A stretch of DNA of 64,000 nt from a virus (Duplodnaviria > Heunggongvirae > Uroviricota > Caudoviricetes). The notes beneath the pieces were generated by a model. The model was given only the letters and a program-made list of their open reading frames with translations. It was not told the DNA's origin and did no database searches. How positions within the stretch are numbered: position 1 is the first letter of the stretch; each line of letters opens with the position of its first letter. The position numbers were made by a program, and so were the translations under genes. Location of the stretch: IMG/VR virus record IMGVR_UViG_3300031344_000001; one strand, written 5' to 3'. Shown piece by piece: positions 1 to 25,755 of the stretch.

Positions 1-1008
1 CATGATGGCCCGCGTGACACCGAGCTTCTTCGGCAAGAGCCCGACGACCCGCTTCCAGTCCGGCTTCTCGGCGACGATCTTCTCGCAGACCTGCGCCTCG
101 GTCAGCTCGTCCCAGCTCTCGGCCTTGGACATCTCGACGCCGATGAGCATCGAGCGCCGGCCGTCCTTTGCCTGATCCTGGGACCAGGTCAGCGCCTCGA
201 AAAACTTCGGCGTCGAGGGCTTGTAGCCGACGGCCCGCGCGAGGTCCATCACCGTGCTCTTGAAGCCAGCCTTGATGAGGCCGTCGAGCATCTTGGGGTT
301 CTCCTCGCGGAACTGGAGCCACTTCTCGACGACCTTCGCCCAGCGCCCCAGGAACGGGCGCCGGGCGGAGTGGCCGAAACCCAGCTCGCGGTTGACGGCA
401 GCCACGCCCGGCACCTTCAAGAGGTTGTGGACGCGGAGCAGGAGCTTCGGGTTCAGATCTTTGCCGTCCCGCCGGTGGACGAGCAGCATCGCCTCACCAA
501 CGTCGCGGAAGTCGTCGTCGTAGAACGACACCTTGCCCCCGTCGAGCACGGGGTCACCCTTGCGGGTCTGCACGAGCATGAATGCCGCGAGCACGACCTT
601 GAGGTCGCGGTGCTCCTGCCCGAAGGCGTACGAGGCCCAGCGCGCAGCGAACTCGTTGTCCATCCGCCAGACCTCGGCGACCTGGCGGTACATCCACACG
701 GCGACCTCGGGGAACAGCCCCGGCGCGCGGTACTCGCCGACCACGCGCCCGTTCTCCTCGACCTTCCGATCGGCGCGCATCACGCCCTTGCGGACCTTGT
801 TCGTCTTCTTGCCGACCTTCGTCAGCTCGTAGACGACCTTCTGACCGTTCTCGTCCTTGTGCGTGACCGGCACCCAGCGCACGCCGACCGCGTGCCGCGC
901 GTCCGCCGTCACCATGCCGGGACGGTTGTGGACCATGTGGTCTGCGTAGTTCAGGAGCGTCTGGAGGATCTTCTCCGCCGGGCCCAGCTTCTCGTTTGCA
1001 GTCGTCAT
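1..1008 (-). CDS. TROVE/Ro60-like RNA-binding protein, N-terminal part (runs off the window; not in the ORF track)
   Basis: Hand translation: open 336 codons MTTANEKLGPAEKILQTLL...DNEFAARWASYAF..EHRDLKVVLAAFML...; AGGGGG SD upstream; helical character and position at the end of the tRNA array. CDS is solid, family call is by recall. Confidence 0.5.
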   Translation of the reverse strand, partial: MTTANEKLGPAEKILQTLLNYADHMVHNRPGMVTADARHAVGVRWVPVTHKDENGQKVVYELTKVGKKTNKVRKGVMRADRKVEENGRVVGEYRAPGLFPEVAVWMYRQVAEVWRMDNEFAARWASYAFGQEHRDLKVVLAAFMLVQTRKGDPVLDGGKVSFYDDDFRDVGEAMLLVHRRDGKDLNPKLLLRVHNLLKVPGVAAVNRELGFGHSARRPFLGRWAKVVEKWLQFREENPKMLDGLIKAGFKSTVMDLARAVGYKPSTPKFFEALTWSQDQAKDGRRSMLIGVEMSKAESWDELTEAQVCEKIVAEKPDWKRVVGLLPKKLGVTRAIM

Positions 1009-1089
1009 CGCGATCCCCCTTGCAGCCAGCGCATTCACCTGGCTGCGCTTTGTGCCATCAGATGCACTCGAATGCAAGCGCAGGGATCG

Positions 1090-1161
1090 TATCGGCGACG
1101 GGGATCGAACCCGTATCTCGGTCTTGAAAGGACCGGGTCCTGGCCATTGAACGACGCCGAC
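1090..1161 (-). tRNA. tRNA-Glu(TTC)
   Basis: anticodon arm CGGTC-CTTTCAA-GACCG; T arm GGTTCGATCC. Confidence 0.9.
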
Positions 1162-1166
1162 AGGAG

Positions 1167-1234
1167 TGCCTCCGGCTGGACTCGAACCAGCTCACCGAGC
1201 TTCGGAGACTCGGGTCACGTCCACGTACGGAGGC
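1167..1234 (-). tRNA. tRNA-Arg(CCG), short D arm
   Basis: acceptor GCCTCCG/CGGAGGC; loop CTCCGAA; GGTTCGAGTCC. Confidence 0.8.
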
Positions 1235-1448
1235 GTGAAATAGTGCGTAGTCGACGACGATGCTAACGTTATGCTGTGAGCCGATCCCGCCGCCGTCGGA
1301 AGCTGCCGAAGTGCAGCTGTGGTCGCCACTGCATCCCACGCGATGATGCGAAGCAGCGCGATTCAATCGGGAGCTGCACGATCCTCGAGTACACCTACGA
1401 GCACAACGCGCGCCTGCGCGCGTTCCGTCGGAAGCGTGCCGCATCAAG

Positions 1449-1521
1449 TGATCCCGCCAGGACTTGAACCTGGGCCCTTCGGTTTAGGAAACCGACGCTC
1501 TGTCCACTGAGCTACGGGACC
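1449..1521 (-). tRNA. tRNA-Arg(CCT)
   Basis: TCGGT-TTCCTAA-ACCGA; canonical D and T arms. Confidence 0.92.
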
Positions 1522-1865
1522 GACGTCTCTCGCGACCACATCTCAGGGCTGTGCTCGCTGAGATCCTTGACGCGGCCCCAGAAGAGCGCCTTGATGTCGA
1601 ACGGGATCTCGAACTTCGGATCGGTGCGCTCGCGTACGACGCGAAACACGTCGTAGACCAGTTCGTCGACGGGGTGCTTGATCTCCTCGACGTAGATCCG
1701 GCTGAACTTCTCCCGCCAGTGAAAGAAGGATCCGCGCGCCGCGCACCAGCGCGCGACCGAAGCGTTCCGACAGCGGCCGACGTAGTACGCACCGTCCACG
1801 AGCGCATCCCTTAACAGGATCGCGCGACCGGTGTGCTCGTCGTGGTGCGGAAGCGCGAAGGACAC
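1512..1865 (-). CDS. phage-type hypothetical protein (start uncertain)
   Basis: ORF with GAYYVGRCRNASVARW...FFHWREKF...IKHP.DE..YDVF; lies between two tRNAs. Confidence 0.65.
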   Translation of the reverse strand: MSFALPHHDEHTGRAILLRDALVDGAYYVGRCRNASVARWCAARGSFFHWREKFSRIYVEEIKHPVDELVYDVFRVVRERTDPKFEIPFDIKALFWGRVKDLSEHSPEMWSRETSVP

Positions 1866-1889
1866 GAGGAAGAGTCTACACCGCGCAAG

Positions 1890-1963
1890 TGCTCCTGGAG
1901 GGACTCGAACCCACAAAGGGCCGTTTAGAAAACGGCTGCCCGTTCCAACCGAGCATCAGGAGC
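1890..1963 (-). tRNA. tRNA-Arg(TCT)
   Basis: GCCGT-TTTCTAA-ACGGC; GGTTCGAGTCC. Confidence 0.85.
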
Positions 1964-1975
1964 AGAAAAAGATCG

Positions 1976-2047
1976 AGCACCGGGCGGGAATCGAACCCGC
2001 GTTGCGCGCTTTGCAGGCGCGTGCCTGAGCCACTTGGCTACCGGTGC
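1976..2047 (-). tRNA. tRNA-Cys(GCA)
   Basis: CGCGC-CTGCAAA-GCGCG; U discriminator. Confidence 0.92.
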
Positions 2048-2071
2048 AAAACAGGTGATACGCTCAACTTC

Positions 2072-2323
2072 ATGGCCGTCACTCCCCTGATCTTGAACGT
2101 TCGTATCTCTGCCCCAACCTCGAGCGAGGTTGGAGAAAACCTCTGGCGTGTCGACATCGTCGGTGGCGTCTCGTCACGGGATGGAACGCCCCTGAGCGGC
2201 GGTCTTCTGGCGATCTGCGACACCGAGCGCGAGGCCCAAGCCTTCGTCGCAGCGCTCGGCCTCGACAACCTGTTGAACAGGATGGCCGAGCACCTGAGCA
2301 GGTCAGCGGACAAAAGCAGGTGA
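2072..2323 (+). CDS. hypothetical protein, antisense to the tRNA array
   Basis: 83-aa ORF MAVTPLILNVRIS... filling the gap between tRNAs. Confidence 0.5.
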   Translation: MAVTPLILNVRISAPTSSEVGENLWRVDIVGGVSSRDGTPLSGGLLAICDTEREAQAFVAALGLDNLLNRMAEHLSRSADKSR

Positions 2324-2499
2324 ACAACTATCTACTGTGGGGTCTTGGAATCGTTGTCCCACTAACGTGCGCCATTAGCTGGATACGAGGACGGGGGCCG
2401 ATCTGCACATGTCGTGAGCCCGGCGATTCTTGCGGACATTGCAACAGGCCGCTTCCTAAAGCCAAGGTGGTAAACCGCTGATCGTAGCGGCCCGCGTAG

Positions 2500-2570
2500 T
2501 TCAGGAGGAAGGACTCGGACCTTCATAGCTGGTGTCAAAGACCAGCGTCCTACCGTTAGACGACTCCTGA
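2500..2570 (-). tRNA. tRNA-Gln(TTG)
   Basis: CTGGT-CTTTGAC-ACCAG; variant T loop TCCGAGT. Confidence 0.88.
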
Positions 2571-2583
2571 TCATCCAGTGTCG

Positions 2584-2657
2584 AGCCGTCACTCGGAGTC
2601 GCACCGAGCCCTCTCGCGTACCAGGCGAGCGTGCCGAACTGCGGGCACCTTGGCGGC
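2584..2657 (-). tRNA. tRNA-Thr(GGT)
   Basis: CTCGC-CTGGTAC-GCGAG; variant T loop TGCGACT. Confidence 0.75.
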
Positions 2658-2670
2658 AGAAGTTTCTTCG

Positions 2671-2739
2671 TGGAGAGGATGGGAGTCGAACCCACGCAGC
2701 TCCGCTTGCAAGGCGGTGCACCATCCCGATGGCCTCCCC
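2671..2739 (-). tRNA. tRNA-Ala(TGC)
   Basis: loop CTTGCAA; acceptor GGGGAGG/CCTCTCC with G3:U70. Confidence 0.85.
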
Positions 2740-2859
2740 AGGATGCAAAGTACAAAGAAGACTCAGCCGCGTCGCCGAGCGCTCGGCGTGCGCGGCATCC
2801 TAGAGGGAGCCCCTCGCGAGGATGAGTCGTCGACGCGCGTTGATCGAACGCGCTATCGG

Positions 2860-2934
2860 CGGGAACGACGGGATTTGAACCCGCGATCTCTGCCGTGACA
2901 GGGCAGCGTCCACTCCGAGCTGGACCACGTTCCC
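2860..2934 (-). tRNA. tRNA-Asp(GTC)
   Basis: CTGCC-CTGTCAC-GGCAG; canonical. Confidence 0.93.
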
Positions 2935-2966
2935 AAAGAGCGAGAGCGTTGCCGCGCGCTCGCACG

Positions 2967-3173
2967 TCAATTCGGTCGCTCTCGAACGTCGTTGATCGGA
3001 GCCATGGGGAAATGGCCGCACCGTTCACACCGCGGCGCCAGCTCGGCGCGAGCGCGCGGATCGTCGGGCTTGAGCGTCAGCTTCGCGCCGCACCCCGGGC
3101 AGCCCCACCGATAGATGGGCTCCGTGAAGGGCACGAGGTCCTCGGGACGGAAGGTGCCGTACTTAACCTTCAC
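2967..3173 (-). CDS. small zinc-ribbon protein
   Basis: GTG start overlaps the HNH stop (GTGA); CPGC...CERC. Confidence 0.6.
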   Translation of the reverse strand: MKVKYGTFRPEDLVPFTEPIYRWGCPGCGAKLTLKPDDPRARAELAPRCERCGHFPMAPINDVRERPN

Positions 3174-3706
3174 CCTTGCTCCAGCTCCGCGGTCCAGTAC
3201 AGGTAGTCCCTCCAAGCGTCGGGCACCGACGCGCTGCTCACGGCCACTACGAGCACCGGCGACGCGGTCGGCTGTACCGGCGTCTTCAGGAGACGCATGC
3301 CCGCCTGCTCGGGCGTGCGGTTCGCCTTCTTGCGGTTGCAGTCCTCGCAGCACGTGACGATGTTCGTCCACGTCGTCGTGCCACCCCGCGAGCGGGGCAA
3401 GACGTGGTCGTACGATAGGTCGCCGATCGAGTGCTTCGTGCCGCAATACTGGCAGGTGTACTTGTCGCGCCCGTAGATGTTGATGCGCGAGAACTTCACC
3501 GGCTTCTTGTGCCGACGGAACGCCGAGAGTAGCCGCACGACCGCGGGGATCTTGATGACGACCGAGGTCGTCTTGATGTTGCGGTCGTACTCCTCGATCA
3601 CCTCGGCCTTGCCGAGGAAGAGCAGCGTGATCGCGTGCTTCCACGAGACGATGTTCACCGGCTCGTAGCTCTGCGAGAGGACAAGGGTTCTATGTGTCGA
3701 CTCCAT
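3170..3706 (-). CDS. HNH endonuclease
   Basis: TLVLSQSYEP N-terminus; RDKYTCQYCG...DHVLPRSRGG..TWTNIVTCCEDCNRKK; AAGGAG SD. Confidence 0.93.
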   Translation of the reverse strand: MESTHRTLVLSQSYEPVNIVSWKHAITLLFLGKAEVIEEYDRNIKTTSVVIKIPAVVRLLSAFRRHKKPVKFSRINIYGRDKYTCQYCGTKHSIGDLSYDHVLPRSRGGTTTWTNIVTCCEDCNRKKANRTPEQAGMRLLKTPVQPTASPVLVVAVSSASVPDAWRDYLYWTAELEQG

Positions 3707-3784
3707 GGCGTTCGTTCTCCTTCGTTCGATCCTACAGACGTTCCACCCGGCGCGGATCTGACACCGCCACCAGAACTCCTTTCG

Positions 3785-3856
3785 TCGAGCAGACAGGGAT
3801 CGAACCTGCGGTCCCCGGTTCCCCGAACCGGTGCGATACCACTTCGCCACTGCTCG
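3785..3856 (-). tRNA. tRNA-Pro(GGG)
   Basis: CCGGT-TCGGGGA-ACCGG (C33). Confidence 0.85.
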
Positions 3857-3859
3857 AGC

Positions 3860-3935
3860 TGGGGTGACTAGAGGGAATCGAACCCTCGTATCCTGTTCCA
3901 CAAACAGGCGCCTTAGCCGCTAGGCGATAGTCACC
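3860..3935 (-). tRNA. tRNA-His(GTG)
   Basis: CCTGT-TTGTGGA-ACAGG; G-1 and encoded CCA. Confidence 0.93.
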
Positions 3936-3945
3936 ATAATCATCG

Positions 3946-4018
3946 TAGGCCCCGAAGGATTTGAACCCTCAACATTCCGCTAATAAGGCAGACGTTCTAC
4001 CTGTTGAACTAGAGGCCC
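3946..4018 (-). tRNA. tRNA-Ile(TAT)
   Basis: TCTGC-CTTATTA-GCGGA; canonical D and T arms; pyrimidine at position 37. Confidence 0.8.
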
Positions 4019-4024
4019 GCGTCG

Positions 4025-4096
4025 TAGGACTGGGAGGAGTTGAACCTCTCATCGCTCGGTTATCAACCAAGTGCTCTACCGTTGAGCTACAGTCCC
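4025..4096 (-). tRNA. tRNA-Ile(GAT)
   Basis: CTTGG-TTGATAA-CCGAG. Confidence 0.92.
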
Positions 4097-4102
4097 GCAT
4101 CG

Positions 4103-4175
4103 TAGAGAACGTCGGAATCGAACCGACCTCAAGCGTCTTGTAAGGGCGCCATCACCGCCAGGTGGACTGTCCTCC
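4103..4175 (-). tRNA. tRNA-Val(TAC)
   Basis: loop CTTACAA; GGTTCGATTCC; imperfect stems. Confidence 0.75.
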
Positions 4176-4181
4176 ATGTCG

Positions 4182-4256
4182 TCGGGGTGAGTGGATTTGA
4201 ACCACCAATCTCTGCGTCCCGAACGCAGCGCTCTGACCAGGTTGAGCCACACCCCG
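4182..4256 (-). tRNA. tRNA-Pro(CGG)
   Basis: CTGCG-TTCGGGA-CGCAG; canonical. Confidence 0.94.
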
Positions 4257-4290
4257 TTGTTCGTATCGTAGCGCATCCGTACATCGTTCG

Positions 4291-4362
4291 TCGCAACGGG
4301 CGGACTTGAACCGCACCCCGCACGGCTTATGAGACCGTCGTCCAGATCCACTGGTCGCTGCG
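4291..4362 (-). tRNA. tRNA-Met(CAT) (Met vs Ile2 unresolved)
   Basis: ACGGT-CTCATAA-GCCGT; GGTTCAAGTCC. Confidence 0.8.
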
Positions 4363-4366
4363 AAGG

Positions 4367-4442
4367 CGTGGTCTCCGGGACTTTCACCCAGCTGCGCTTT
4401 GGCTTCCTCCTCGCGTTCGCCGTCCGCGAGGCCAAGACCACG
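4367..4442 (-). ncRNA. tRNA-like RNA with acceptor stem and T arm but no normal anticodon arm
   Basis: GTGGTCT/AGACCAC stem, CTGGG-TGAAAGT-CCCGG arm, internal CCTCGCG/CGCGAGG hairpin. Confidence 0.55.
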
Positions 4443-4515
4443 TGGCAGGTCGCCAGGGGATTGAACCCTGCCGCTACGGATTTGGAATCCGAGCCGAGCC
4501 CAGCTCGCGCGACCT
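4443..4515 (-). tRNA. tRNA-Trp(CCA)
   Basis: loop TTCCAAA; acceptor AGGTCGC/GCGACCT, G73, encoded CCA. Confidence 0.88.
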
Positions 4516-4597
4516 AGAAAGAAAGGCTCGCGCGCACCAGTCATCGTCACGGTGGTGGGACACCGTGCCGAGCTGCCCACGTGCGTGCGAGCGCTAG

Positions 4598-4671
4598 TAC
4601 CCCTGGAAGGAATTGCACCTCCGACACCTCGGTCCGTAGCCGAGTGCTCTGGTCTACTGAGCTACAGGGGC
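4598..4671 (-). tRNA. tRNA-Arg(ACG)
   Basis: CTCGG-CTACGGA-CCGAG; T loop TGCAATT. Confidence 0.9.
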
Positions 4672-4677
4672 AAAGAG

Positions 4678-4751
4678 TGTCGCGTGCGGGAGTCGAACCC
4701 GCGTTTCCGGTGTGAGGGACCAGCGTCCTAGGCCATCTGGACGAACACGAC
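4678..4751 (-). tRNA. tRNA-Glu(CTC)
   Basis: CTGGT-CCCTCAC-ACCGG (C33). Confidence 0.88.
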
Positions 4752-4759
4752 AAAAACAG

Positions 4760-4831
4760 TGCGCGCGGCAGGGATCGAACCTGCGAGCTCCGGGTTGTCG
4801 TCCCGGCAATCTGCCGCTGATCTACGCGCGC
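4760..4831 (-). tRNA. tRNA-Val(GAC)
   Basis: CCGGG-ACGACAA-CCCGG (A32, C33). Confidence 0.82.
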
Positions 4832-4836
4832 ATCGG

Positions 4837-4909
4837 AGCGGATGACGAGAATCGAACTCGCCTTTAGAGCGTTGGAAGCGCCCTGCCTCACCAGTCGAGC
4901 CTCATCCGC
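4837..4909 (-). tRNA. tRNA-Gly(TCC)
   Basis: loop CTTCCAA; acceptor GCGGATG/CATCCGC, U73. Confidence 0.88.
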
Positions 4910-4916
4910 AAAACAG

Positions 4917-4988
4917 CTCCTCGGGCAGGAATCGAACCTGCAACCCTCGCGTTAACAGCGCGCCGCACTACCGTTGTGCTACCGAAGA
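4917..4988 (-). tRNA. tRNA-Asn(GTT)
   Basis: loop CTGTTAA; U1-A72, G73. Confidence 0.9.
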
Positions 4989-5004
4989 ATATCGAAAACT
5001 GTCG

Positions 5005-5077
5005 AGCCCGCAGCAGGGATCGCACCCGCGGCCCCTCGCTTACAAGGCGAGTGCTCTGCTGGCTGAGCTATACGGGC
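5005..5077 (-). tRNA. tRNA-Thr(TGT)
   Basis: CTCGC-CTTGTAA-GCGAG; T loop TGCGATC. Confidence 0.87.
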
Positions 5078-5087
5078 AAGCTCGTCG

Positions 5088-5158
5088 AGCCCTCGTCGAG
5101 AATCGAACTCGAGCCTGCGGTTTACGAAACCGCTGCACGACCGTCGTGCTACGAGGGC
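5088..5158 (-). tRNA. tRNA-Thr(CGT)
   Basis: GCGGT-TTCGTAA-ACCGC. Confidence 0.88.
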
Positions 5159-5162
5159 ATTC

Positions 5163-5393
5163 ATGTCATCGAGCATCCACCTCACTCTTCGTGAGCTTCG
5201 TGACGCCTCCGAGTGGGCCGAGGCCCACGTGCGCGATGTCCACAGCGGCGACTTGCCGAACGGGGACCTCCGCGTCTCCACGCTGCCGACCGCCGGCATC
5301 GGGATGCGCGTCGTCGTCTTGTGCGAGGCGTGCGACCGCGTTCGAGTATCAAACGCGAACCACCACGACGTCACCGACTACAGCTGCTGGTGA
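5163..5393 (+). CDS. small hypothetical protein (CxxC), antisense to the array
   Basis: 76-aa ORF starting 5 nt from the adjacent tRNA; CEAC. Confidence 0.5.
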   Translation: MSSSIHLTLRELRDASEWAEAHVRDVHSGDLPNGDLRVSTLPTAGIGMRVVVLCEACDRVRVSNANHHDVTDYSCW

Positions 5394-5396
5394 TGA

Positions 5397-5582
5397 ATGT
5401 CCCAGCAACCACGCAACATCGACCTCGATCTTGAAGGGGGCGAACGACTTGCGCTGACCGTGAAATGTCCGAACGCGCGCTGTGCCTCCCCATCCGGAAC
5501 AAGGTGCCAACCGTACACGCACTGGGTCCGCGTAGCGTGGGCGCTTCGCGCGTTACCAAAACCCGTCGAACGCGACGTCTAA
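5397..5582 (+). CDS. small putative zinc-finger protein
   Basis: CPNARC.SPSGTRC...TH.VR; directly follows the previous ORF. Confidence 0.5.
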   Translation: MSQQPRNIDLDLEGGERLALTVKCPNARCASPSGTRCQPYTHWVRVAWALRALPKPVERDV

Positions 5583-5585
5583 CCG

Positions 5586-5657
5586 AGCGGACGACGGGGA
5601 TCGAACCCGCCTGTATCAGCTTGGCAAGCTGACGCCGCACCAAGCGGCCTCGTCCGC
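5586..5657 (-). tRNA. tRNA-Gly(GCC)
   Basis: TCAGC-TTGCCAA-GCTGA. Confidence 0.9.
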
Positions 5658-5773
5658 AAAACGAAGTCCCGAGTCGCGTTTCAACGTCCGAGTTGGGGTA
5701 ACTCAGGCGCCTCATCGTTGCTACGGCGATCACGTGATCGCCGGCCCGGGCTCTCGGATGCCCGTGCTTCTCG

Positions 5774-5845
5774 TCGAGGTGAGAGGAATCGAACCTCCAG
5801 TCCCAGCGTCCCAAACGCTGTACCCTACCGTTGGGCCACACCTCG
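5774..5845 (-). tRNA. tRNA-Pro(TGG)
   Basis: CAGCG-TTTGGGA-CGCTG. Confidence 0.92.
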
Positions 5846-5963
5846 GAAAAGTTGCTCCCCCTGGATCCCAGTTATTCCCCGGCATGGGGACCTCCGCGCC
5901 TGCGGTTCTTAGAAGTGCCGGGCAAGATGTCGTCTGCACAGGGGAGCTTTGACGACCCACGCG

Positions 5964-6035
5964 TGCCCCCGGTTGGACTTGAACCAACACGCTTCCGGGT
6001 AAGAACCGGCTGCTCTGCATTGGAGCTACGGAGGC
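5964..6035 (-). tRNA. tRNA-Lys(CTT)
   Basis: CCGG-TTCTTAC-CCGG; GGTTCAAGTCC. Confidence 0.82.
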
Positions 6036-6086
6036 AAAGAACGGGCACCAACTCGCGTACGACCGCGAAGTGATTGCCCGCAAACG

Positions 6087-6159
6087 TGCCCAGAGATCGA
6101 GTTGAACGATCATCTCCAGCTCTTCAGGCCGGCGCTTGCACCTCGCAAGCTGTCTGGAC
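6087..6159 (-). tRNA. tRNA-Phe(GAA)
   Basis: CCGGC-CTGAAGA-GCTGG; CGTTCAACTCG. Confidence 0.85.
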
Positions 6160-6307
6160 AATTGTGCGATCGCGCCACATGCCGCGATCGCGTCATCGTC
6201 GTCAACTATTCACTTGTCAGGTGCCCCGTCCCCACCGTGTCGCTGGCGTCCCGCTGTGAGCTCTGCTCGGGGGACCGTCGATTCACGAGTGGTGCAGTCA
6301 GCCGCAG

Positions 6308-6378
6308 TTCAGGGGGAAGGGATCGAACCCTCATAGCGAGTGTCAGAGACTCGCGTCCTACCGTTAGACGACCCCTGA
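6308..6378 (-). tRNA. tRNA-Gln(CTG)
   Basis: CGAGT-CTCTGAC-ACTCG; paralog of the 2500-2570 tRNA. Confidence 0.92.
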
Positions 6379-6780
6379 TCGATCTTTACGCTTTTTTCGT
6401 TTGTACTCACGACAGTATTTGTTCTGAGCCTCTCGGCAACGGGCGCAATGACAGTAGCGATACGAAGACCGGGTACCGTGCTTTCCTTTCGCGACCTCTT
6501 GTCCGAGTTCCGTGATTGTTTTCTCCTCGTGACAAGCGCGACAAAGCGCCTGACATTTTCTCAACTCTTGCTCGAAGCGCTCCTTGGAGACAGACCACAA
6601 CTGACTGATCGAAAATGACTTCTTTTTTGGGTCAACGTGATCAAATTCTAACGCCTCAGTGGATCCACACTTGCAGCAGACGCCCCCAAGTTGCTTGAGC
6701 GCTGCCTCACGTCGTGCGTGATAGCGTTTAAGTATGTAAACGCGCATGTACGCATTATAATCTTGGCGCTTACTTGGCAT
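6364..6780 (-). CDS. HNH endonuclease (phage type)
   Basis: LGGVCCKCG...LEFDHVDP...KCQALCRACH; C-terminal HGT..Y..CHC.RC; visibly lower GC. Confidence 0.88.
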   Translation of the reverse strand: MPSKRQDYNAYMRVYILKRYHARREAALKQLGGVCCKCGSTEALEFDHVDPKKKSFSISQLWSVSKERFEQELRKCQALCRACHEEKTITELGQEVAKGKHGTRSSYRYCHCARCREAQNKYCREYKRKKRKDRSGVV

Positions 6781-6782
6781 CG

Positions 6783-6854
6783 TGGGATCAGAGGGATTTG
6801 AACCCTCAACTCTTGACTTAAAAGGACAGTATGATGCCGTTTCACCATGATCCC
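6783..6854 (-). tRNA. tRNA-Lys(TTT), mismatched anticodon stem
   Basis: acceptor GGGATCA/TGATCCC; loop CTTTTAA; GGTTCAAATCC. Confidence 0.78.
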
Positions 6855-6899
6855 ATTAGTGCGTCAAGAGTTTTCGTTTCTTCATCAAATCTCCTTTCG

Positions 6900-6983
6900 T
6901 GGGCGCGCTCGGAATCGAACCGAGACGGTGCAGAGCACGCGTGATCTACAATCACGCCCGGAGCCACGCCGGTCTGCGCGCCC
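6900..6983 (-). tRNA. tRNA-Tyr(GTA)
   Basis: CGTGA-TTGTAGA-TCACG; long variable arm. Confidence 0.87.
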
Positions 6984-6984: not shown

Positions 6985-7024
6985 AAAACGAGAAGAGCCT
7001 CCAAGGGTTATCCCAGGGAGGCTC
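6985..7024 (-). terminator. intrinsic terminator of the array leader
   Basis: GAGCCTCC-ctgggataaccctt-GGAGGCTC-TTCTCGTTTT directly before the first tRNA. Confidence 0.75.
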
Positions 7025-7069
7025 CAGATCGCTTCGGCTGTTTCAGCCTGGTCTATGCGTCTGGAGCCT
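7019..7069 (-). promoter_or_regulatory. antiterminator hairpin competing with the terminator
   Basis: perfect 10-bp AGGCTCCAGA (7069-7060) / TCTGGAGCCT (7028-7019); the latter overlaps the terminator 5' arm. Confidence 0.7.
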
Positions 7070-7226
7070 TCTCTTCGTAGGTCGTGGGCTGCGGCTCGCG
7101 CTTGATACCCACGACGGTCCCCTGGCCGGCGAAGTTCGCCATACCCGCCCAATCGCGGCGCGCACACGGATGTCCTACGGTGCCTTGGCACCTGGACGAC
7201 ACTGTGAGAGCGAATGCGATCGACAT
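7053..7226 (-). CDS. putative attenuator leader peptide (57 aa)
   Basis: MSIAFALTV...TTYEEKAPDA*; ATG 16 nt after the -10 box; last codons cover the antiterminator 5' arm. Confidence 0.6.
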   Translation of the reverse strand: MSIAFALTVSSRCQGTVGHPCARRDWAGMANFAGQGTVVGIKREPQPTTYEEKAPDA

Positions 7227-7242
7227 GGCGGGTACAAGGAGG

Positions 7243-7271
7243 ATGCTAACGTGCCGCCGATCAGAAGTCAA
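7243..7271 (-). promoter_or_regulatory. sigma70-type promoter of the tRNA array
   Basis: TTGACT-17 nt-TAGCAT. Confidence 0.7.
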
Positions 7272-7297: not shown

Positions 7298-7918
7298 TCA
7301 CGTCGTGACGCTCAACTCCGCGCGTCGCATGAAGCGCCCGCGCCGATGACCGCGCTGCGAACCGCGCTTTCTTTCTACGCCTGCCACACGCTCGTAACCC
7401 GCCGCGAGAAGGGCCTTCCGTAACACATCCGCGGTGACCCCGAGGTTACTGGCCACTTCGCAGCTGGGCATCCCCTGGTTCTCGATCCAACTCACGGCCA
7501 GCCTGACGCTGTAGTCATCGAGCCGTCGATCCGGGAGCCACGTCACGTGCAGCACGTGGAACTTCACGCGCGTGCGCACGTAGAGGACGCTCGTACCTGG
7601 CGCACGCCCGATCTCGAGGATGCCTTCCGCTCGGAGTGCCTCCGGCGTGGTCGACGTTTGAACGAGCGACGCCCGTGCACGCACCCGCGAGGGCGCTGCT
7701 GTTTGCCCTCGCGGCGCGAGGGCCGTGGGCAACGGCGGCGGCGGCGACGGCGGCGGCGGCGACGGCGGCGACGGCGGCGGCGGCGACGGCGGCGGCGGCG
7801 GCGACGGCGGCATGCACGCGATTTGAACGGGCGCAGGGAGCGGTTCGAGCCCTAAGCGCGCTCTCTCATCACGCTCGAACGCCGCGAAGGACGAATAGAT
7901 GCGTGGAACGAGCGTCAC
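7298..7918 (-). CDS. hypothetical protein, Pro-rich linker, possible C-terminal HTH
   Basis: ORF; EVASNLGVTADVLRKAL. Confidence 0.5.
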   Translation of the reverse strand: MTLVPRIYSSFAAFERDERARLGLEPLPAPVQIACMPPSPPPPPSPPPPSPPSPPPPSPPPPLPTALAPRGQTAAPSRVRARASLVQTSTTPEALRAEGILEIGRAPGTSVLYVRTRVKFHVLHVTWLPDRRLDDYSVRLAVSWIENQGMPSCEVASNLGVTADVLRKALLAAGYERVAGVERKRGSQRGHRRGRFMRRAELSVTT

Positions 7919-11409: not shown

Positions 11410-13467
11410 TCACAACTCCTCGTTCCACCCGTCCCCGTCGATCGGGACGAACCCCTTGTCGGTCAACTCGAGGCGTCCCACGATGTTGGTAGCTCCGAAC
11501 CGATTCTTGCCGGGGCACCGGAGGATCCTCTCCCGTCCCTCAAGCTTCGCGCTCTGCTCCATCTCGAGCACGACGTCGACGTCGTGCTCGATCGTCTTGG
11601 GGCCCGCGATGTCCCCGTCCGCCGTGACGTGCCCGATGAGCCAGAGGGCCGTGCCTGTCGTCTTAGCGTAGCTGACAAAGCGATCCGTGCACGCCTTGAG
11701 CTGCGCCGGGGACCCCGCACGCCCTCCAACGTCCTCGCAGATCATCTTCTGGATCGAGTCGATCGCGATCGTCTGCGCGCGCATCGCCCGCGCGTGCGCG
11801 AAGATCTTGGTGAGTTGCCGCTCGGCCATCACGTAGAGCCGGGGAGACACCGCGTCGATGCGCCGCGCGGTCGCCGCGAGCTGCTCGCGCGTCTCCTCAC
11901 CCGTGACGTAGAGGCAACGGTGCTTGAGCCCGACGAGCACCTGGAGGGTGAGCGACGAATTATGCGTGACGGTGAAATCGCCGAGCAGGAAGCGCCCGTC
12001 GCCATCCAGGGTAAATCCGAAAAAAAGACCTTCTCCAATCGGCTCGACAGCGAAGCCCGTGCGCGTCGCGACCTTCTTCTGCCGCCGCGGACGCGCTTGT
12101 TTACGCGGAAGGCGCGTCGGGATCATGTTCGTGTCACCCGAGATGGTGACTCGCCAGTAATCGCCCTCGAAGATCGAACCATCGGCACGTTTGTAGCGCC
12201 CACGTTTGGGCACGATCGTCGCGCACAGCCCGAGTGATCGAGCCATCCACCAAATCTCCCGCGCCCAATCCTCGCGCTTCTGCGTGATGCAGAGACATGT
12301 GTTAACCAGATCGCCATCACGGTCGAGCAAGCCCGCCAAGAACTGGAGACGCTGATCACGTGGCGCCCTCGTATAGATCGCAGGCATGCGCAACTCCGTG
12401 CCGAGCAGGTTACGCAGCGTGCTGAGCAAGCGATTGACTGTCCCGCAACCGCGACTGCCATTGGTGATGGCGTACGTCGGACACCCACTGGTGTTTAGCG
12501 ACACGGTGACCTGCAAGTCCCAGGAACGCGCGACGTCTTCACACGACGCACGCACCTCGGGATCTGGCTTAGTGACGTGCACCTTCCTGAGCTGCCCGTC
12601 TTGGACCTGCTTAGTACCATCGCCGAACCAAAGTCCTAGAAAATAAGGATCGACCGGGAGCGTGTGGGTCTCTCCTCCAAATGACTCCACGCCGACGCTG
12701 AAGAGCTTTCCGTGATGACGCATGTCCGAATGCGGCGCCTTCGCTTGCCATTCGTCGAGGGGTACGTCGAACACTTCGTCCGTGTAACTGTCGACCAACG
12801 TGAGTACATGCGCGTCGTTGCAAATCCACGGCTCCCCCTTGATCGGATCAATCCGAAAGAGTTCTCCGCGCCCCTCATTCGTCGAGAGCACGACACGGGG
12901 CTTACCATCAGGCCCCATCAAACGATCACCCGGCAAGATTTGCTCAACCGGCAACACGCGGCCATCAAACAAAAGTACCGGCGTTCCACGTCCGAGGCAC
13001 TTACCAATGCCAGGCGGCGACGCGAGCAGCACCACGGAAGCCACGACCAGACCGCCCCCAAGCACGTGGTCGACAGGCACGAGCCCCGTCGAGTCACGAA
13101 CGAACGTCGCTTCCGGGATCTCCGAGATCGGGATCGGCGCCTCGGAGGCGGAGTCCACCGCTGATTCCTCCTCAGGTTCCGTGAGCTCGGGCTCGGGAGA
13201 AGGCGCGCGCACGACCGTGAGTCGCGAGAACTGCGGCACCGGCAATTCCGGCCGGGCCCTTCGCAGTGCGGGCGCCTGGTCCTGCGCAACGGCTTGCACC
13301 GGGACCTCCGCATCGGCGTTGACCACGTCGAGCCCCTCCATCGCTCGACAGCCCACGCAACGAGGCACCCACTTGGCGTGCACCTGCCCGCACGCGCGGC
13401 ACACGAAGCGACGAACGGGGGCGTCGTTCACGACGCCCGGATTGTGAGGATCTCGATCGATGGGCAC
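11410..13467 (-). CDS. radA: RadA/Sms-like ATPase, intein-containing, lacking the C-terminal Lon-like domain
   Basis: FVCRACG..KW..RCVGC zinc finger; PGIGK|S Walker A; YVTGEE; IDSIQ; IGHVT..G.IAGPKTIEHDVD; KNRFG. Confidence 0.88.
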   Translation of the reverse strand: MPIDRDPHNPGVVNDAPVRRFVCRACGQVHAKWVPRCVGCRAMEGLDVVNADAEVPVQAVAQDQAPALRRARPELPVPQFSRLTVVRAPSPEPELTEPEEESAVDSASEAPIPISEIPEATFVRDSTGLVPVDHVLGGGLVVASVVLLASPPGIGKCLGRGTPVLLFDGRVLPVEQILPGDRLMGPDGKPRVVLSTNEGRGELFRIDPIKGEPWICNDAHVLTLVDSYTDEVFDVPLDEWQAKAPHSDMRHHGKLFSVGVESFGGETHTLPVDPYFLGLWFGDGTKQVQDGQLRKVHVTKPDPEVRASCEDVARSWDLQVTVSLNTSGCPTYAITNGSRGCGTVNRLLSTLRNLLGTELRMPAIYTRAPRDQRLQFLAGLLDRDGDLVNTCLCITQKREDWAREIWWMARSLGLCATIVPKRGRYKRADGSIFEGDYWRVTISGDTNMIPTRLPRKQARPRRQKKVATRTGFAVEPIGEGLFFGFTLDGDGRFLLGDFTVTHNSSLTLQVLVGLKHRCLYVTGEETREQLAATARRIDAVSPRLYVMAERQLTKIFAHARAMRAQTIAIDSIQKMICEDVGGRAGSPAQLKACTDRFVSYAKTTGTALWLIGHVTADGDIAGPKTIEHDVDVVLEMEQSAKLEGRERILRCPGKNRFGATNIVGRLELTDKGFVPIDGDGWNEEL
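11959..12999 (-). mobile_element. intein with LAGLIDADG-type endonuclease (347 aa)
   Basis: starts CLGRGT, ends FTVTHN|S; PYFLGLWFGDG and FLAGLLDRDG blocks. Confidence 0.93.
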
Positions 13468-17903: not shown

Positions 17904-20900
17904 CTAGATCACGAAATCTTTGCGCAGCGCGCGACGGACAGCCTTCCAGTCGAAGACGCCCAGGCGCGCCGACCCGTCGTTGACGGCGTAGCTCGCGACG
18001 AGCGCGTCACCGACCTGGGCGAGCCCCGCGCAGAACTCGATGCCCAGTTGCTCGAAGTAGAACGGGTCCGTCATCGAGACGAGGCGGTGCTGGTCGTCGA
18101 GCATGACGAAGCGATGCAGGTAGATCCTGCCAGAGCCCCCCGGGAAGGCCACGTCGTGGACGACGAAGATCCAACCACCTTCGACACGCACTCCCTGCGA
18201 CCCACCGCGAAGCCTGCCGTGCTGCGCGAACAGCGACGGCTGCCAATCCGCCGGAGCCCCAACGGCGTAACGGCCATGCTCCATCGCGAACCATGCAAGA
18301 CGCTTCACGTCACGATCGTCTGCGTCGACCAGGTCGAGGACCGTCGTCGGGTGCGTAGCGTAGAGGAACTGCGCGACGTCGCCGTCAATGAGCGGCATCC
18401 AATTCTTTTGCGCGTGCACGCTCCACGGTCCACGCATGGGATCGACACGCGCGATCCGTCCATCATCGCCGATCTGAAGCAGCACGATCTCGCGGCGACC
18501 TTCCTCCGTGAAGTCGCAGACGGTCGCGGTCGCCCACCACGTCCCCCGCCACGCGAACAAGCGTGCGTCCTCGAAGCCGTGCACCGGGTATGCCGTGCGC
18601 GTCTCCCCCGTCGCGTCCACGATCTCGGTGGCGTGCGTCGTCTTCAAGTCTGCTCCCAGGTCGAGGAGAAAGTTACGCGTGCGTATGACCTGCCACCCCT
18701 TCCACGGTCCGTCCTCCTGCACGACGTCGCCGGGGGGCGTCACGTAGGCGCCATCCACGATTCGGTAATTCACGGTGCGCACGATGCAGCGCACCCGCTC
18801 GCCATCGGAGTAGATCGACGGATTGCTGGCGTTCCAACCAGGGTCCGGCGAGAACTCGATCGGACGAGCCGTGGCTCCGAACAACGACTCCGCACTCGGC
18901 GCGGAGAACGCACGGTTCGACCGGAGGCGTTCGTCGTCCGGACTCCAGCTCAGCGCGATGTCCGCCCAGTAGCGCGCATCGTCCTTGTGCCCTGCATAGA
19001 ACGACGAGATCGAAGCGCGGTCCGCCGCCTTCCAGGTGTAGACGTCTTCATCGAGGAAGAGGTCCGTCGGTGGCTTGGGAGTCTCCGCCGCGGCGACGGC
19101 GAAGATGCGCGCGATCGCGTGGACCCCCTTGTTGTACCAGTAGTCGGAGATCTCATAGAGGGGTTCGCCGCGCCGCGGGTCGTGTTGGTAAGCCTCCAGG
19201 AACGACTGCTGAACCTCAGCCCAAGGGCGCTCGAGCTTCGACTTCATCTTGCCGATGCGCAGCTTCGCCTCGAAGACCTCGTCGAAGTAACCACCCATCT
19301 CGGCACGGCGCTCGAAGAAAGCGAGCGCCTGCGCGTACTGCCCCAGGCACTCGTGCGTCTGCCCGAGGTAGAAGTACGGCCTCGGGTCACTGGGGTCCTC
19401 GACCCGGTCGCGGTTCAAGAGGTCGAGGTCCCGCGTCCACCGCGCGCGCCACTCCGCGTCGGATCGAGCACCGCGGTCGCGGTTCACGATCACGTCCGGG
19501 ATCATGCTACCCACGTTGGGGCCTACCGCGCACTCGTGCGTCCGCCACTTGTAGCGCCAGCCGGAACCCGTGCGCATCACCAGCGGGTGGTAGTAGTGCC
19601 CGGGGGAGATGCGCACACGATACGCGCAGGAAGGATCGCGTCGGTGCGCTTCGAGGAAGCTCCGAAGCGCCTCTCCTCCGGAGAGGACGTCCCCGTTGGG
19701 CATGATCGAGAACACCGTGCTCGTGCCGTGCAGCTCGAGCGCGCGGTTTCGACTCGTCGCGAAGTCAACGAACGGTTCCTCGTGGAGCGCTCCTGGAATG
19801 CCGTCGAGCTGCTCGCGGATCAGGCGCTGCGTCCCGTCGGTCGACCCCGTGTCGAGGATCGTCCAGGTGTCGATGTACGGTCGGTACGACGCGAGCACTG
19901 CCTCGATGCGCTTCGCCTCGTTCTTGACGATCATGACGAGGCCGAGCAACGGACGATCCTGCGAAGCGATCCGCGCCCAGCTCTCCGCGACGCCTCCCAT
20001 GACAGAAGAAAGCCCGCGCGCCTGAGCGTCCGCGCTGATCCACGTCCGATAAACGTCACCGGCCCGCAGCGCGTCATGATTCCGCACGATGTCCTCGTAG
20101 TCACCGTAGCTGTAAGCGTAGTTGCCAGGGCGCTGACCAACGACGTACGAGAGCAGCCCCTCGTCGAGAGGTGCAAGTCCCCTCGTGGTCGCGAGGTCGA
20201 CGGCGCCCCAGAAGTCACGGATCAGCCCACGCATGCTCGCGCAGGTGCCAACGATGAGCCCCCCCGCGAGGTGCCCGTAGACGCTGTGCCAGTAGCTAGG
20301 TGCGTCAACGTCGCGCTTGTCGAAGCAACGGAGCACGTGGACGTGCGCCCGGTCCGACGGGTCGGCGAAGACGTCGACGCCCTCTGGAGGGAGCTTGGCC
20401 ACGTGCGTGATCGCCAGATCAATCCAACCGACGTGACTGACACGCGTAACCTCGAGCGCCATCTCCAACATCGCGTACTTCGCCCACATGAGTTGGACGT
20501 AGGGCGCCGTCACCTTCGTCTTGCGCGCGTTGTGCTGGAGGGTGCCGCGCTCAGCAGCGCTGACTCGTGCAGCGCCGAGAAGCTTCTCGAACGGGATCGG
20601 CACGACCTTCGTTCGACGGTTGCCCCGCAACGCGAGCAACCGCTTCTCCAGCTCGGGCTCGGTGAAGATCACCATCTCGCGGTCGAGCCCGAGCACGTAG
20701 TCAGCGTTCGCGAACATCCAGTCGACGGACCGGTGCTCCGTGCTGCCGCGCTTGGCAAGGTCGTAGAGGCAGGTGACGAACGCGAGTTTCTTCATGGAAA
20801 GGACCCCTATGCGCCCACGGTACCTGCCTGCTCCGACCGCTCCGTAGACGCAGTCGGGCTCCAGATTCCTTGCGGCTTCGAGTTCTTGGCGCTTGTTCAT
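17904..20900 (-). CDS. multidomain glycosyltransferase: HtrL/YibB-like + GT2 + TPR + beta-propeller-like domain
   Basis: VTCLYDL/GWIDL; LVMIVKNE..DTGSTDGT..F.DFA.SRN; FYLGQT TPR; NPSI/EDARLF/QKNWMP/LRGGSQ/IEFCAGL. Confidence 0.82.
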   Translation of the reverse strand: MNKRQELEAARNLEPDCVYGAVGAGRYRGRIGVLSMKKLAFVTCLYDLAKRGSTEHRSVDWMFANADYVLGLDREMVIFTEPELEKRLLALRGNRRTKVVPIPFEKLLGAARVSAAERGTLQHNARKTKVTAPYVQLMWAKYAMLEMALEVTRVSHVGWIDLAITHVAKLPPEGVDVFADPSDRAHVHVLRCFDKRDVDAPSYWHSVYGHLAGGLIVGTCASMRGLIRDFWGAVDLATTRGLAPLDEGLLSYVVGQRPGNYAYSYGDYEDIVRNHDALRAGDVYRTWISADAQARGLSSVMGGVAESWARIASQDRPLLGLVMIVKNEAKRIEAVLASYRPYIDTWTILDTGSTDGTQRLIREQLDGIPGALHEEPFVDFATSRNRALELHGTSTVFSIMPNGDVLSGGEALRSFLEAHRRDPSCAYRVRISPGHYYHPLVMRTGSGWRYKWRTHECAVGPNVGSMIPDVIVNRDRGARSDAEWRARWTRDLDLLNRDRVEDPSDPRPYFYLGQTHECLGQYAQALAFFERRAEMGGYFDEVFEAKLRIGKMKSKLERPWAEVQQSFLEAYQHDPRRGEPLYEISDYWYNKGVHAIARIFAVAAAETPKPPTDLFLDEDVYTWKAADRASISSFYAGHKDDARYWADIALSWSPDDERLRSNRAFSAPSAESLFGATARPIEFSPDPGWNASNPSIYSDGERVRCIVRTVNYRIVDGAYVTPPGDVVQEDGPWKGWQVIRTRNFLLDLGADLKTTHATEIVDATGETRTAYPVHGFEDARLFAWRGTWWATATVCDFTEEGRREIVLLQIGDDGRIARVDPMRGPWSVHAQKNWMPLIDGDVAQFLYATHPTTVLDLVDADDRDVKRLAWFAMEHGRYAVGAPADWQPSLFAQHGRLRGGSQGVRVEGGWIFVVHDVAFPGGSGRIYLHRFVMLDDQHRLVSMTDPFYFEQLGIEFCAGLAQVGDALVASYAVNDGSARLGVFDWKAVRRALRKDFVI

Positions 20901-20912
20901 TCACACGCGCGT

Positions 20913-21530
20913 TTACGCGCCCCGCCTGGAGATCACGATCACGTCGGCCTTGGGCAGGCTCACCGTGAAGTACAGCGCGTCGACGACGACGCTCTCGAAC
21001 TCGGCCTTGCGGTCGACCAGGATGCGCTCCTGGTTCGGGTCCACGCGGTTGACGTCCTCGATCACGTAGAGCCCGTTGGGGCGCAGGCTCGGGTAGAAGT
21101 TGCGGAGCGTCTTGACCTGAAGCTCCGGGATGTGCGCGCCGTCGTCGATGATGATGTCGAAGCCGAACGTTCGGTCCAGGTAACCCCTCGCAGCCTCGGG
21201 GTCCGTCGAGTCACACAGCGCGGTGCGGATCCGAGGGTCGTCGACGATCATCGTGTCCGGCTGGACGTCGATGCCGTGGATGACGCCGCTCGCGAAGTAG
21301 TCGCGCCACGCGCGCAACGACGCGCCAGGTCGGTAGCCGGGGAGGTCGTGCCCGTACATCGAGCAGTAGGCTCCGGGGATCACCGTCCCGATGCCGATCT
21401 CGAGCAGGGACACGGACTGGTCGCGCAGGTGCTTGAACAGCGCGTGGTAGATCGGCGCGTAACCGTTCTGACTCTGCTTGTCGCTGGCGTGCCCGTTCAG
21501 GAGATCGTCGAGGTCGAGATTGCGCGTCAC
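20913..21530 (-). CDS. class I SAM methyltransferase (sugar O-methyltransferase-like)
   Basis: SDK...Y..Y, LLEIGI, GASLRAW..YF, FDIIIDDGAH, GLYVIED. Confidence 0.85.
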   Translation of the reverse strand: MTRNLDLDDLLNGHASDKQSQNGYAPIYHALFKHLRDQSVSLLEIGIGTVIPGAYCSMYGHDLPGYRPGASLRAWRDYFASGVIHGIDVQPDTMIVDDPRIRTALCDSTDPEAARGYLDRTFGFDIIIDDGAHIPELQVKTLRNFYPSLRPNGLYVIEDVNRVDPNQERILVDRKAEFESVVVDALYFTVSLPKADVIVISRRGA

Positions 21531-23101: not shown

Positions 23102-23187
23102 GGGTTGACGAACTTCTTACGACGGCAGTGCAAGCGCGTGCAATGGTGAAACGTCAAGGAGCGCGCGGCGGATCCCTACGCACTGTT

Positions 23188-23748
23188 TTACTTCGTGAGA
23201 AACTTGAAGCCGCACTTCGGACAACCGTGCTCCTCGAAGTGAGCGAAATGGCTGACAAGCCGCAAATTATCGTCCCGGTTATCGTTCTTGATTCCATTGC
23301 GGTGGTTAACATCTTCAGCGGGATGTAGATAGCGCCCGAGGATCCTCTCCATCACGAGACGATGTTCGAGGACGTACGTTCCATCACCCTTACCGTTCCG
23401 ACGTGCGAAAGGATGATCTGGCGCCCACACGTGCACGTAACCATCACGCTTGTCTGTGTAGCGACCGCCCTTCCACCCTGGTGCTTTGCACCCCTTCTTA
23501 CCTAAAGCCGAGCGTGCATGGTTCGCGCTGATCTTCTTCCTAGTCTCTGTGGTGTCGTGCGTCTTCCACCACAACGCCCGAGCCTTCGCCATCTTCCGAC
23601 GGGTCTTTGAACTAGGCTTGTAGTTTCCCGCTGCACGCCCTGCGGCTTGTCCAGCTTTCAAAGCGGCTTGAAAGGCTGGATCGCGGCGCCGCTTGTTGAG
23701 GCTCTTACGCGCGGCCTCCTTCATCAGAAGAAGGCGTGCCTTTGACAT
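23188..23748 (-). CDS. HNH homing endonuclease
   Basis: ETRKKIS NUMOD-like motif; WKGG; YVLEHRLVME..LGR.L...E.V.H.NG.K.DN...NL. Confidence 0.88.
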   Translation of the reverse strand: MSKARLLLMKEAARKSLNKRRRDPAFQAALKAGQAAGRAAGNYKPSSKTRRKMAKARALWWKTHDTTETRKKISANHARSALGKKGCKAPGWKGGRYTDKRDGYVHVWAPDHPFARRNGKGDGTYVLEHRLVMERILGRYLHPAEDVNHRNGIKNDNRDDNLRLVSHFAHFEEHGCPKCGFKFLTK

Positions 23749-24947: not shown

Positions 24948-24955
24948 TGCACTCG

Positions 24956-24985
24956 CTTATAGTGCCGGCGCGCGTGGAATGTCAA
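24956..24985 (-). promoter_or_regulatory. sigma70-type promoter for the Arc-rmlB-glycosylation operon
   Basis: TTGACA-18 nt-TATAAG, 8 nt before the ATG (near-leaderless). Confidence 0.7.
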
Positions 24986-25742: not shown

Positions 25743-25755
25743 GCGGGTCCGCAGG

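Follow-up and report, generated by a model that had tools for sequence, protein, structure and literature searches.

A leader that probably gates the tRNA array of a giant phage by sensing translation

The leader at positions 6985-7271 (minus strand) of a stretch of 64,000 nucleotides (nt) under the IMG/VR virus record IMGVR_UViG_3300031344_000001, hereafter the window, stands directly before a long array of transfer RNA (tRNA) genes. It carries a promoter, a 57-codon open reading frame (ORF) and two alternative RNA helices, and we propose that it is probably a translation-sensing transcription attenuator of the whiB7 kind, through which a giant phage would control transcription into its main tRNA array. 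In silico, the leader is conserved part by part, its helices exclude each other and carry compensatory changes, its frame is maintained and its fold depends on where a ribosome footprint is placed. From this we infer that the leader would be translated and its hairpin would terminate transcription, and likewise the timing of these events and their natural trigger, for which cleavage of host tRNA by an anticodon nuclease is speculation.

A conserved leader before the first tRNA

The whole module of promoter, ORF and switch recurs in eight other metagenomic loci (L002, L008, L011 and L016-L020), which were reached through the neighbouring protein and through the leader peptide and were aligned with the window as nine DNA sequences. 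Conservation follows the parts: besides the two promoter boxes (Table 1), mean pairwise identity is 0.30 upstream, merely 0.56 in the promoter spacer, 0.52 in the 5' untranslated region (UTR), 0.65 in the first 18 codons, 0.84 in the remaining frame and 0.71-0.80 in the switch with its U-tract. The U-tract adjoins tRNA-Tyr in eight of the nine loci, and a common gene order (Lys, Gln, Phe, Lys, Pro, Gly and onwards) follows tRNA-Tyr in the window, L008, L016 and L018. L020, a contig of 732 nt, has no tRNA after the terminator. There, a convergent endonuclease-VII-like ORF (533-730, minus strand) lies between the leader terminator and the expected site of tRNA-Tyr, and we rejected this locus as a counter-example, as the insertion of that ORF right after the terminator accounts for the absent tRNA.

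The genes upstream of the module vary among the loci and are transcribed divergently in L016, L017 and L019, so that no co-directional transcription reads in there and no source of transcription for the array is visible other than the conserved promoter. Its spacer is 17 nt in the window and 17-18 nt across the loci, and the pattern TTGAC-N17-20-TANNNT has its sole match on either strand of the 64 kilobases (kb) of the window at this place. Transcription is predicted to start near 7235. When the nine promoters are aligned, the conserved positions are the two hexamers and a GTA motif, and no conserved repeats appear between the -10 box and the start; between the U-tract and tRNA-Tyr of the window there is no space for a separate tRNA promoter. 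Read from these sequences, the promoter, ORF, antiterminator and terminator are one conserved unit that abuts the first tRNA, and we conclude that the module is real and under selection as a unit.

A preliminary description of the window, made from its letters, had already listed most of these parts, and they are borne out: the promoter TTGACT-17-TAGCAT, the 57-codon ORF with all 20 amino acids, a perfect inverted repeat of 10 base pairs (bp) with its 5' arm in the KAPD codons and its 3' arm overlapping the terminator, and the terminator itself just before tRNA-Tyr, at the positions given in Table 1. Its figure of 31 tRNAs has to be lowered, as ARAGORN gives 29 in the window.

The frame of the leader is kept throughout. 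The ATG and the stop occupy identical alignment columns in all nine loci, where the ORF measures 171, 171, 171, 162, 171, 168, 165, 171 and 171 nt (54-57 codons), and insertions and deletions within the frame are all of 3 or 9 nt, those past the stop being of 1-2 nt. In the window the frame is open further upstream to a GTG at 7301, which overlaps the upstream stop as GTGA and would give a product of 82 amino acids. We rejected this longer reading: the extension is closed in L008, L017, L018 and L020, so that ATG 7226 is the conserved start. The 5' UTR segment TACCCGCC (7227-7234, minus strand) is perfectly complementary to 7142-7149 in codons 27-29 of the leader, and this pairing could conceal the region around the start. 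The helix was kept out of the model because its partner segment is deleted in L008 and L018 and no clear covariation was seen by eye; that segment is also hypervariable.

No relative of the DNA or peptide of the leader was found among cultured phages or plasmids, none of the leader in IMG/VR by protein, profile or DNA pattern, and none in the GTDB species genomes, where the only DNA-pattern match, in a metagenome-assembled genome of the Bryobacterales (L021), was set aside as chance, being a Pro/Lys-rich coding region without tRNAs. A profile search of 1.84 billion representatives returned only eight short relatives of the leader peptide.

Exclusive helices and the position of the ribosome

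The 257-nt leader folds better than 200 of 200 dinucleotide shuffles (z = -4.67). Its switch would consist of an antiterminator, which is a perfect 10-bp inverted repeat (I2) in the window, and of a hairpin that together with the U-tract makes a predicted intrinsic terminator between the leader ORF and the array. As GGAGCCT is common to both stems, the two are mutually exclusive, and pairing is kept in both. The antiterminator is paired in 95% of cells across the loci: L008 has changed A:U to G:C on both arms, with a peptide that goes from ...PDA to ...PGT, and in L016 and L019 the register is shifted, GCG becoming TCG together with G becoming A. Its 8-bp core is without variation in the nine loci and is uninformative either way. 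All nine loci keep the rare codons GCT and CCA of the 5' arm unchanged, in a phage whose genes have a GC content at third codon positions of 0.85. The outer stem of the terminator is paired in 98.8% of cells in the nine loci, and its pair 229:253 occurs as GC, GU, AU or UA. The arms of the terminator inverted repeat (7024-7012 with 7007-6995) span 13 nt and are 85% complementary; a simple terminator scan with a loop limit of 8 nt missed this hairpin, because its apical part exceeds that limit. About 68 nt separate the stop codon from the end of the U-tract.

Two further hairpins lie within the ORF. In the small one, the pairs 51:62 and 52:61 (alignment A2) have changed from U:A to C:G on both sides, despite Cys/Arg and Thr/Val changes in the peptide. 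The loop of the other, the 8-bp hairpin, holds GAGCCGC (7091-7097), a copy of the terminator 5' arm, and the RNAalifold consensus pairs it with the terminator 3' arm, with one mismatch in the window itself. As modelled, the read-through state of most loci allows GAGCCGC to sequester the terminator 3' arm.

Which of the two main helices forms would, in the model, be decided by the position of the ribosome in the leader. Without constraints, the minimum-energy fold of the 3' leader includes the antiterminator in nine of nine loci (-38 to -45 kcal/mol), whereas masking a ribosome footprint at the stop codon yields the full terminator in nine of nine (-24 to -32 kcal/mol). Partition functions were computed for five loci with a mask of -12 to +15 around the peptidyl (P) site and with the RNA ending at the terminator stem. 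In all five, the terminator has a probability of mostly <=0.1 when the RNA is free of ribosomes or the P-site occupies one of codons 1-48; once the P-site reaches codon 50, the value is 1.0 and stays so up to the stop. In this calculation the antiterminator would win unless the last ~9 codons or the stop are masked by a footprint of ribosome size. The preliminary description had supposed that complete translation of the leader masks the antiterminator, and the thermodynamic model supports this, as do the folds made with and without the 3' end of the ORF constrained; the compensatory changes in both helices and the fixed columns of ATG and stop are also in line with it, and we regard its interpretation as a whole as partly supported.

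Based on these results we propose that the attenuator would set how much of the transcription from one dedicated host-type promoter enters the tRNA array. RNA polymerase would start near 7235 and transcribe the 57-codon frame. By default, AGGCUCCAGA in the last codons would pair with UCUGGAGCCU downstream, the lower half of the terminator stem would be lost and the polymerase would read on into tRNA-Tyr and the remaining array. A ribosome that has kept up with the polymerase and stands on the last ~9 codons or the stop while the terminator is made would hide the antiterminator 5' arm, upon which the full hairpin with its U-tract would form and transcription would stop 2-4 nt before tRNA-Tyr. 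As the terminator would need a ribosome at the end of the frame, slow or failed translation anywhere in codons 1-48 would turn the tRNA genes on whatever its cause, possible ones being a missing or cleaved tRNA, a shortage of amino acids, and damaged or inhibited ribosomes. Good translation would turn the tRNA genes down, and the net effect would be negative feedback on translation capacity.

The composition of the frame is suggestive in this respect, as it fits a general sensor without proving one. The window leader encodes all 20 amino acids, and among the nine leaders six hold 20 and three hold 19, compared with a mean of 16.5 in random 57-residue windows of the phage's own proteins, 1.5% of which hold all 20. 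Seventeen of the 20 lie within the inherited conserved block of the leader, and the composition is in effect one observation, since it is mostly carried by that block. No leader of the nine has runs of one amino acid, by which an amino-acid-specific attenuator would be recognized. The preliminary description had also stressed many rare codons. An excess is found, 14 of 57 in the window leader against 6.6 +/- 3.6 in gene windows (p ~0.04), but it is modest, and a frame without codon-usage selection would show the same.

Table 1. Features of the leader, the tRNA array and adjoining genes in the window
Feature	Position	Strand	Remarks
206-amino-acid protein gene	7298-7918	(-)	directly upstream of leader
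-35 box TTGACT	7266..7271	(-)	TTGAC invariant in 9/9 loci, sixth base T or A; identity 0.92, against 0.30 just upstream
-10 box TAGCAT (TAGCNT in relatives)	7243..7248	(-)	identity 0.88
Leader ORF, 57 codons + TAG	7053..7226	(-)	ATG 7226; TAG 7055-7053
Small ORF hairpin GGTGCC-AA-GGCACC	7179..7192	(-)	two-sided pair changes
8-bp ORF hairpin GTCGTGGG/CCCACGAC	7081..7115	(-)	inverted repeat I3
Antiterminator 5' arm AGGCTCCAGA	7060..7069	(-)	codons 52-55 (K-A-P-D); 4 nt before stop codon
Hairpin GGCTG-AAA-CAGCC between antiterminator arms	7036..7048	(-)	in all loci; two-sided change in L008
Antiterminator 3' arm TCTGGAGCCT	7019..7028	(-)	overlaps terminator 5' arm
Terminator hairpin (predicted)	6994..7025	(-)	9-bp outer and 3-bp inner stem; about -22 kcal/mol alone
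U-tract TTCTCGTTTT	6985..6994	(-)	identity 0.80; ends 2 nt before tRNA-Tyr (6983)
tRNA array	1089..6983	(-)	29 genes (ARAGORN); Tyr(gta) first, Glu(ttc) last
HNH endonuclease ORF inside array	6364-6780	(-)	between tRNA-Lys and tRNA-Gln

Weighing the other explanations

Several points weigh against attenuation by translation. All the evidence for the switch is computational. In the window, some footprint positions in the middle of the ORF give a terminator probability of 0.2-0.66, and on RNAs extended by the U-tract and downstream bases the terminator reaches 0.43 in L019 and 0.85 in L020 with no ribosome on the RNA. The size of the footprint and equilibrium folding are assumed, and kinetics, pausing and the coupling of transcription to translation lie outside the model. 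Covariation was taken from the nine DNA sequences, the most divergent peptide (P0074) lying outside the DNA alignment, and it rests on few events because the sequences are only nine and the antiterminator core is invariant; the shuffle controls for it came to 22/500 and 11-29/500, figures which are not probabilities. An open frame is weak evidence here, because the DNA is GC-rich and the +2 frame is likewise free of stops in seven of the nine loci. Finally, no Shine-Dalgarno sequence is seen in the ~9-15 nt 5' UTR of the leader. A motif of this kind stands at the first start of about 6 of 24 long ORFs of this phage, and a leader that lacks it is unexceptional.

The switch could be real but governed by a factor in trans and not by the ribosome; this factor, whether protein, tRNA or small RNA, would bind the purine-rich GAAGGGAAGGCUCCAGAC and thereby free the terminator. 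A candidate is the conserved protein of 206 amino acids with a C-terminus like a helix-turn-helix (HTH), which is often encoded just upstream and whose gene adjoins the module in the window, L002, L011, L008 and two further contigs. Such binding is also suggested by some 45 nt around the antiterminator 5' arm that are almost invariant, which exceeds what pairing needs. The gene is, however, not beside the module in L016, L017 and L019, and no Rfam family, the T-box included, matches the leader. Moreover, the fixed ATG, the stop fixed 4 nt past the arm and the indels in threes would be left unexplained, and we consider this explanation improbable.

The leader could instead be an ordinary gene for a microprotein of 57 amino acids with its own promoter and terminator, the tRNAs being made from a constitutive leak through that terminator. 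Members of the family occur as called proteins in metagenomes, and the C-terminal ~38 residues are well conserved (GH.C...DW...ANFAGQGTVVGIKREPQPTTYEGKAPDA), with ratios of nonsynonymous to synonymous differences (pN/pS) of 0.56-0.69. The pattern of substitution argues otherwise. In the nine loci codons 2-18 have a pN/pS of 0.92 and the remaining codons one of 0.56. Among four genomes compared, the first 18 codons have pS 0.39 and pN 0.44 (ratio 1.1) and the rest of the leader pS 0.155 and pN 0.107, while the neighbouring gene of the same four genomes has pS 0.52 and pN 0.26, so that synonymous sites in the 3' two-thirds of the leader are about three times more conserved than in that gene. Variable sites by codon position number 12/16/20 in the conserved part of the leader (nine loci), with no clear excess at third positions, compared with 59/57/95 in the neighbour. 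Judging by these counts, the N-terminal peptide is drifting freely, and the 3' two-thirds would be constrained at the nucleotide level, with at most weak selection on amino acids in addition; amino acids change where RNA pairs persist. AlphaFold, run on a 12-sequence alignment, predicted no secondary structure, with a predicted local distance difference test score (pLDDT) of 54 and a predicted template modelling score (pTM) of 0.14, and this result together with the few relatives in the profile search leaves a folded microprotein unsupported. As the N-terminal part is neutral, the synonymous sites are constrained and no fold is predicted, it is translation of the frame to a fixed stop, together with the RNA, that seems to be kept, and not a functional microprotein. 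With no room for a separate tRNA promoter after the U-tract, we judge a microprotein gene with a leaky terminator an unlikely account of the leader.

Very improbable, in our view, is a static structured 5' leader, in which a fixed three-way junction would serve processing or stability (as an entry site for RNase P or RNase E, or as a protective hairpin) without regulated termination. In its favour, the full-length minimum-energy folds show a junction with the antiterminator and a shortened terminator hairpin, in which an outer helix pairs with the U-tract region, and the U-tract lies immediately next to the RNase P site of tRNA-Tyr. Against it, the pairs of the lower terminator stem persist, with compensatory changes, while being incompatible with the antiterminator; a GC-rich stem followed by a conserved run of U is the mark of an intrinsic terminator; and the conserved frame is left unexplained.

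Genomic setting, meaning and known systems

The source of the window is a giant, uncultured soil phage-like element, as is concluded from its phage features and from relatives of the 206-amino-acid protein and their synteny on contigs of 240-530 kb. The DNA has a GC content of 61-71% across the window, and the genes that point to a phage are those for a collagen-like tail-fibre protein, an HNH endonuclease within the tRNA array and an intein-containing KaiC/DnaB-like ATPase. Genes for tRNA-Ser, tRNA-Leu and tRNA-Met are absent from the window array (29, ARAGORN) and from the 31-gene array of L016. The tRNAs are separated in several places by gaps of 280-750 nt with short or doubtful ORFs only (1162-1447, 1522-1888, 2048-2498, 3029-3783 and 5159-5584), and a terminator-like hairpin lies inside the array at 1756-1732.

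The 206-amino-acid protein, which may be a phage transcription factor, has a proline-rich linker and a conserved HTH-like C-terminal segment, W-I-E-x-x-G-x-P-S-x-E-V-A-x-N-L-G-V-x-x-x-x-L-R-x-A-L. It has no Pfam or PHROG match. Its 57 relatives lie mostly on very long contigs, several of 240-530 kb, and its gene is the immediate upstream neighbour of the leader in at least six contigs, while in some it is absent from this place. Two of the contigs that carry it share the order ATPase, DSPc phosphatase, 206-amino-acid gene and a gene-poor stretch with an HNH gene, and in one of these two a TROVE/vWA_Ro60 protein of 556 amino acids then follows at the position after the array. The preliminary description had placed a Ro60-like gene behind the array of the window as well. 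The ORF found there (1-1077, minus strand) is 87% identical to L016 16551-17489; within the window its first 336 residues give no Pfam hit, TROVE included. The label Ro60-like is plausible for it.

Farther from the leader, the KaiC/DnaB-like ATPase (11410-13467, minus strand) is split by an intein with Hint and LAGLIDADG homing-endonuclease domains, and its relatives on other contigs are uninterrupted or divided into two ORFs. A sugar/modification cluster at 17904-30176 (minus strand) encodes two HtrL_YibB-domain proteins, one with TPR repeats, an NAD-dependent epimerase/dehydratase, a subtilase and a Methyltransf_24/CmcI-like methyltransferase.

To our knowledge, almost nothing is known of how phage tRNA genes are regulated. 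For 50 years it has been debated whether such genes compensate for codon usage or stand in for tRNAs that host defences have destroyed (PMC10264068). If our proposal is true, the phage gauges translation capacity directly and supplies tRNAs on demand, the logic of trp and whiB7 reaches RNA genes, and a compact, testable sensor of 290 nt is at hand, which can be fused to a reporter. A broader thought, which we offer tentatively and hold to be rather doubtful, is that giant phages have a tiered, self-contained system of translation surveillance with the leader as its master gauge. In it, the frame with all 20 amino acids would gate the main array, and the phage would read the state of each tRNA pool of the host through its own ribosome test tracks and make good precisely those tRNAs that are lacking, for instance once host defence nucleases have cleaved them.

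Among known systems, the T-box (RF00230) resembles the proposed attenuator in a choice between antiterminator and terminator that depends on the state of tRNAs and lies upstream of translation-related genes, but the phage leader has no specifier loop or T-box sequence and has instead a conserved, putatively translated frame. The Rfam search gave no match to the leader at E <=0.1 in the window or at E <=1 in four relatives, and the T-box, transfer-messenger RNA (tmRNA), Y RNA and other known RNA families were rejected accordingly. The trpL, hisL, leuL and ilv leaders combine a short translated leader of 14-32 codons with alternative antiterminator and terminator hairpins, and in the E. coli trp leader the stop codon lies ~70 nt from the end of the U-tract, similar to the distance in the phage leader. 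As in the leaders of this type, a ribosome at the end of the phage leader would, in the model, hide the antiterminator 5' arm. Unlike them, the phage leader is three to four times longer, with 57 codons, and has no runs of one regulatory codon. No upstream segment that would pair with the antiterminator arm (a 1:2 hairpin) was found in the phage leader, so that the untranslated state is predicted to be on, and not super-attenuated as in the trp type.

The cryptic trn operon of Anabaena sp. PCC 7120 (the L-array) is likewise a long extra tRNA array, normally silent and switched on when translation is impaired (PMC8421152; PMC10272220). It is controlled at initiation by the repressor TrcR through direct repeats of 9 nt that cover the -10 box and the start of transcription (PMC8421152; PMC10272220). 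In contrast, the corresponding region of the phage promoter has no conserved repeats, and what is conserved is the leader ORF and the terminator.

By analogy, the closest mechanistic relative of the phage leader is the attenuator of the whiB7 upstream ORF (uORF) of mycobacteria, in which efficient translation leads to a rho-independent terminator and stalling to an antiterminator and read-through (10.1101/2023.06.02.543512). That uORF, long and of mixed composition, reports the loss of many amino acids, tRNAs and synthetases, and ribosome defects too (10.1101/2023.06.02.543512). The preliminary description had drawn on both whiB7 and the Anabaena repressor, and its account of them is accurate to the literature (10.1101/2023.06.02.543512; PMC8421152). 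Both the whiB7 and the phage leader have a promoter-proximal uORF of several dozen codons, with mixed amino acids and a poorly conserved peptide sequence. The two share no sequence similarity, the phage leader is not enriched in alanine, and it stands before an array of ~30 tRNA genes, whereas the cargo of whiB7 is a transcription factor; no positive feedback by a protein is seen in the phage, whose loop would close through the tRNAs themselves. A search of the literature found no account of leader-peptide attenuation of tRNA genes. The class of mechanism is known; what would be new is that it acts on tRNA genes and in a phage, through a leader that is general and not codon-specific.

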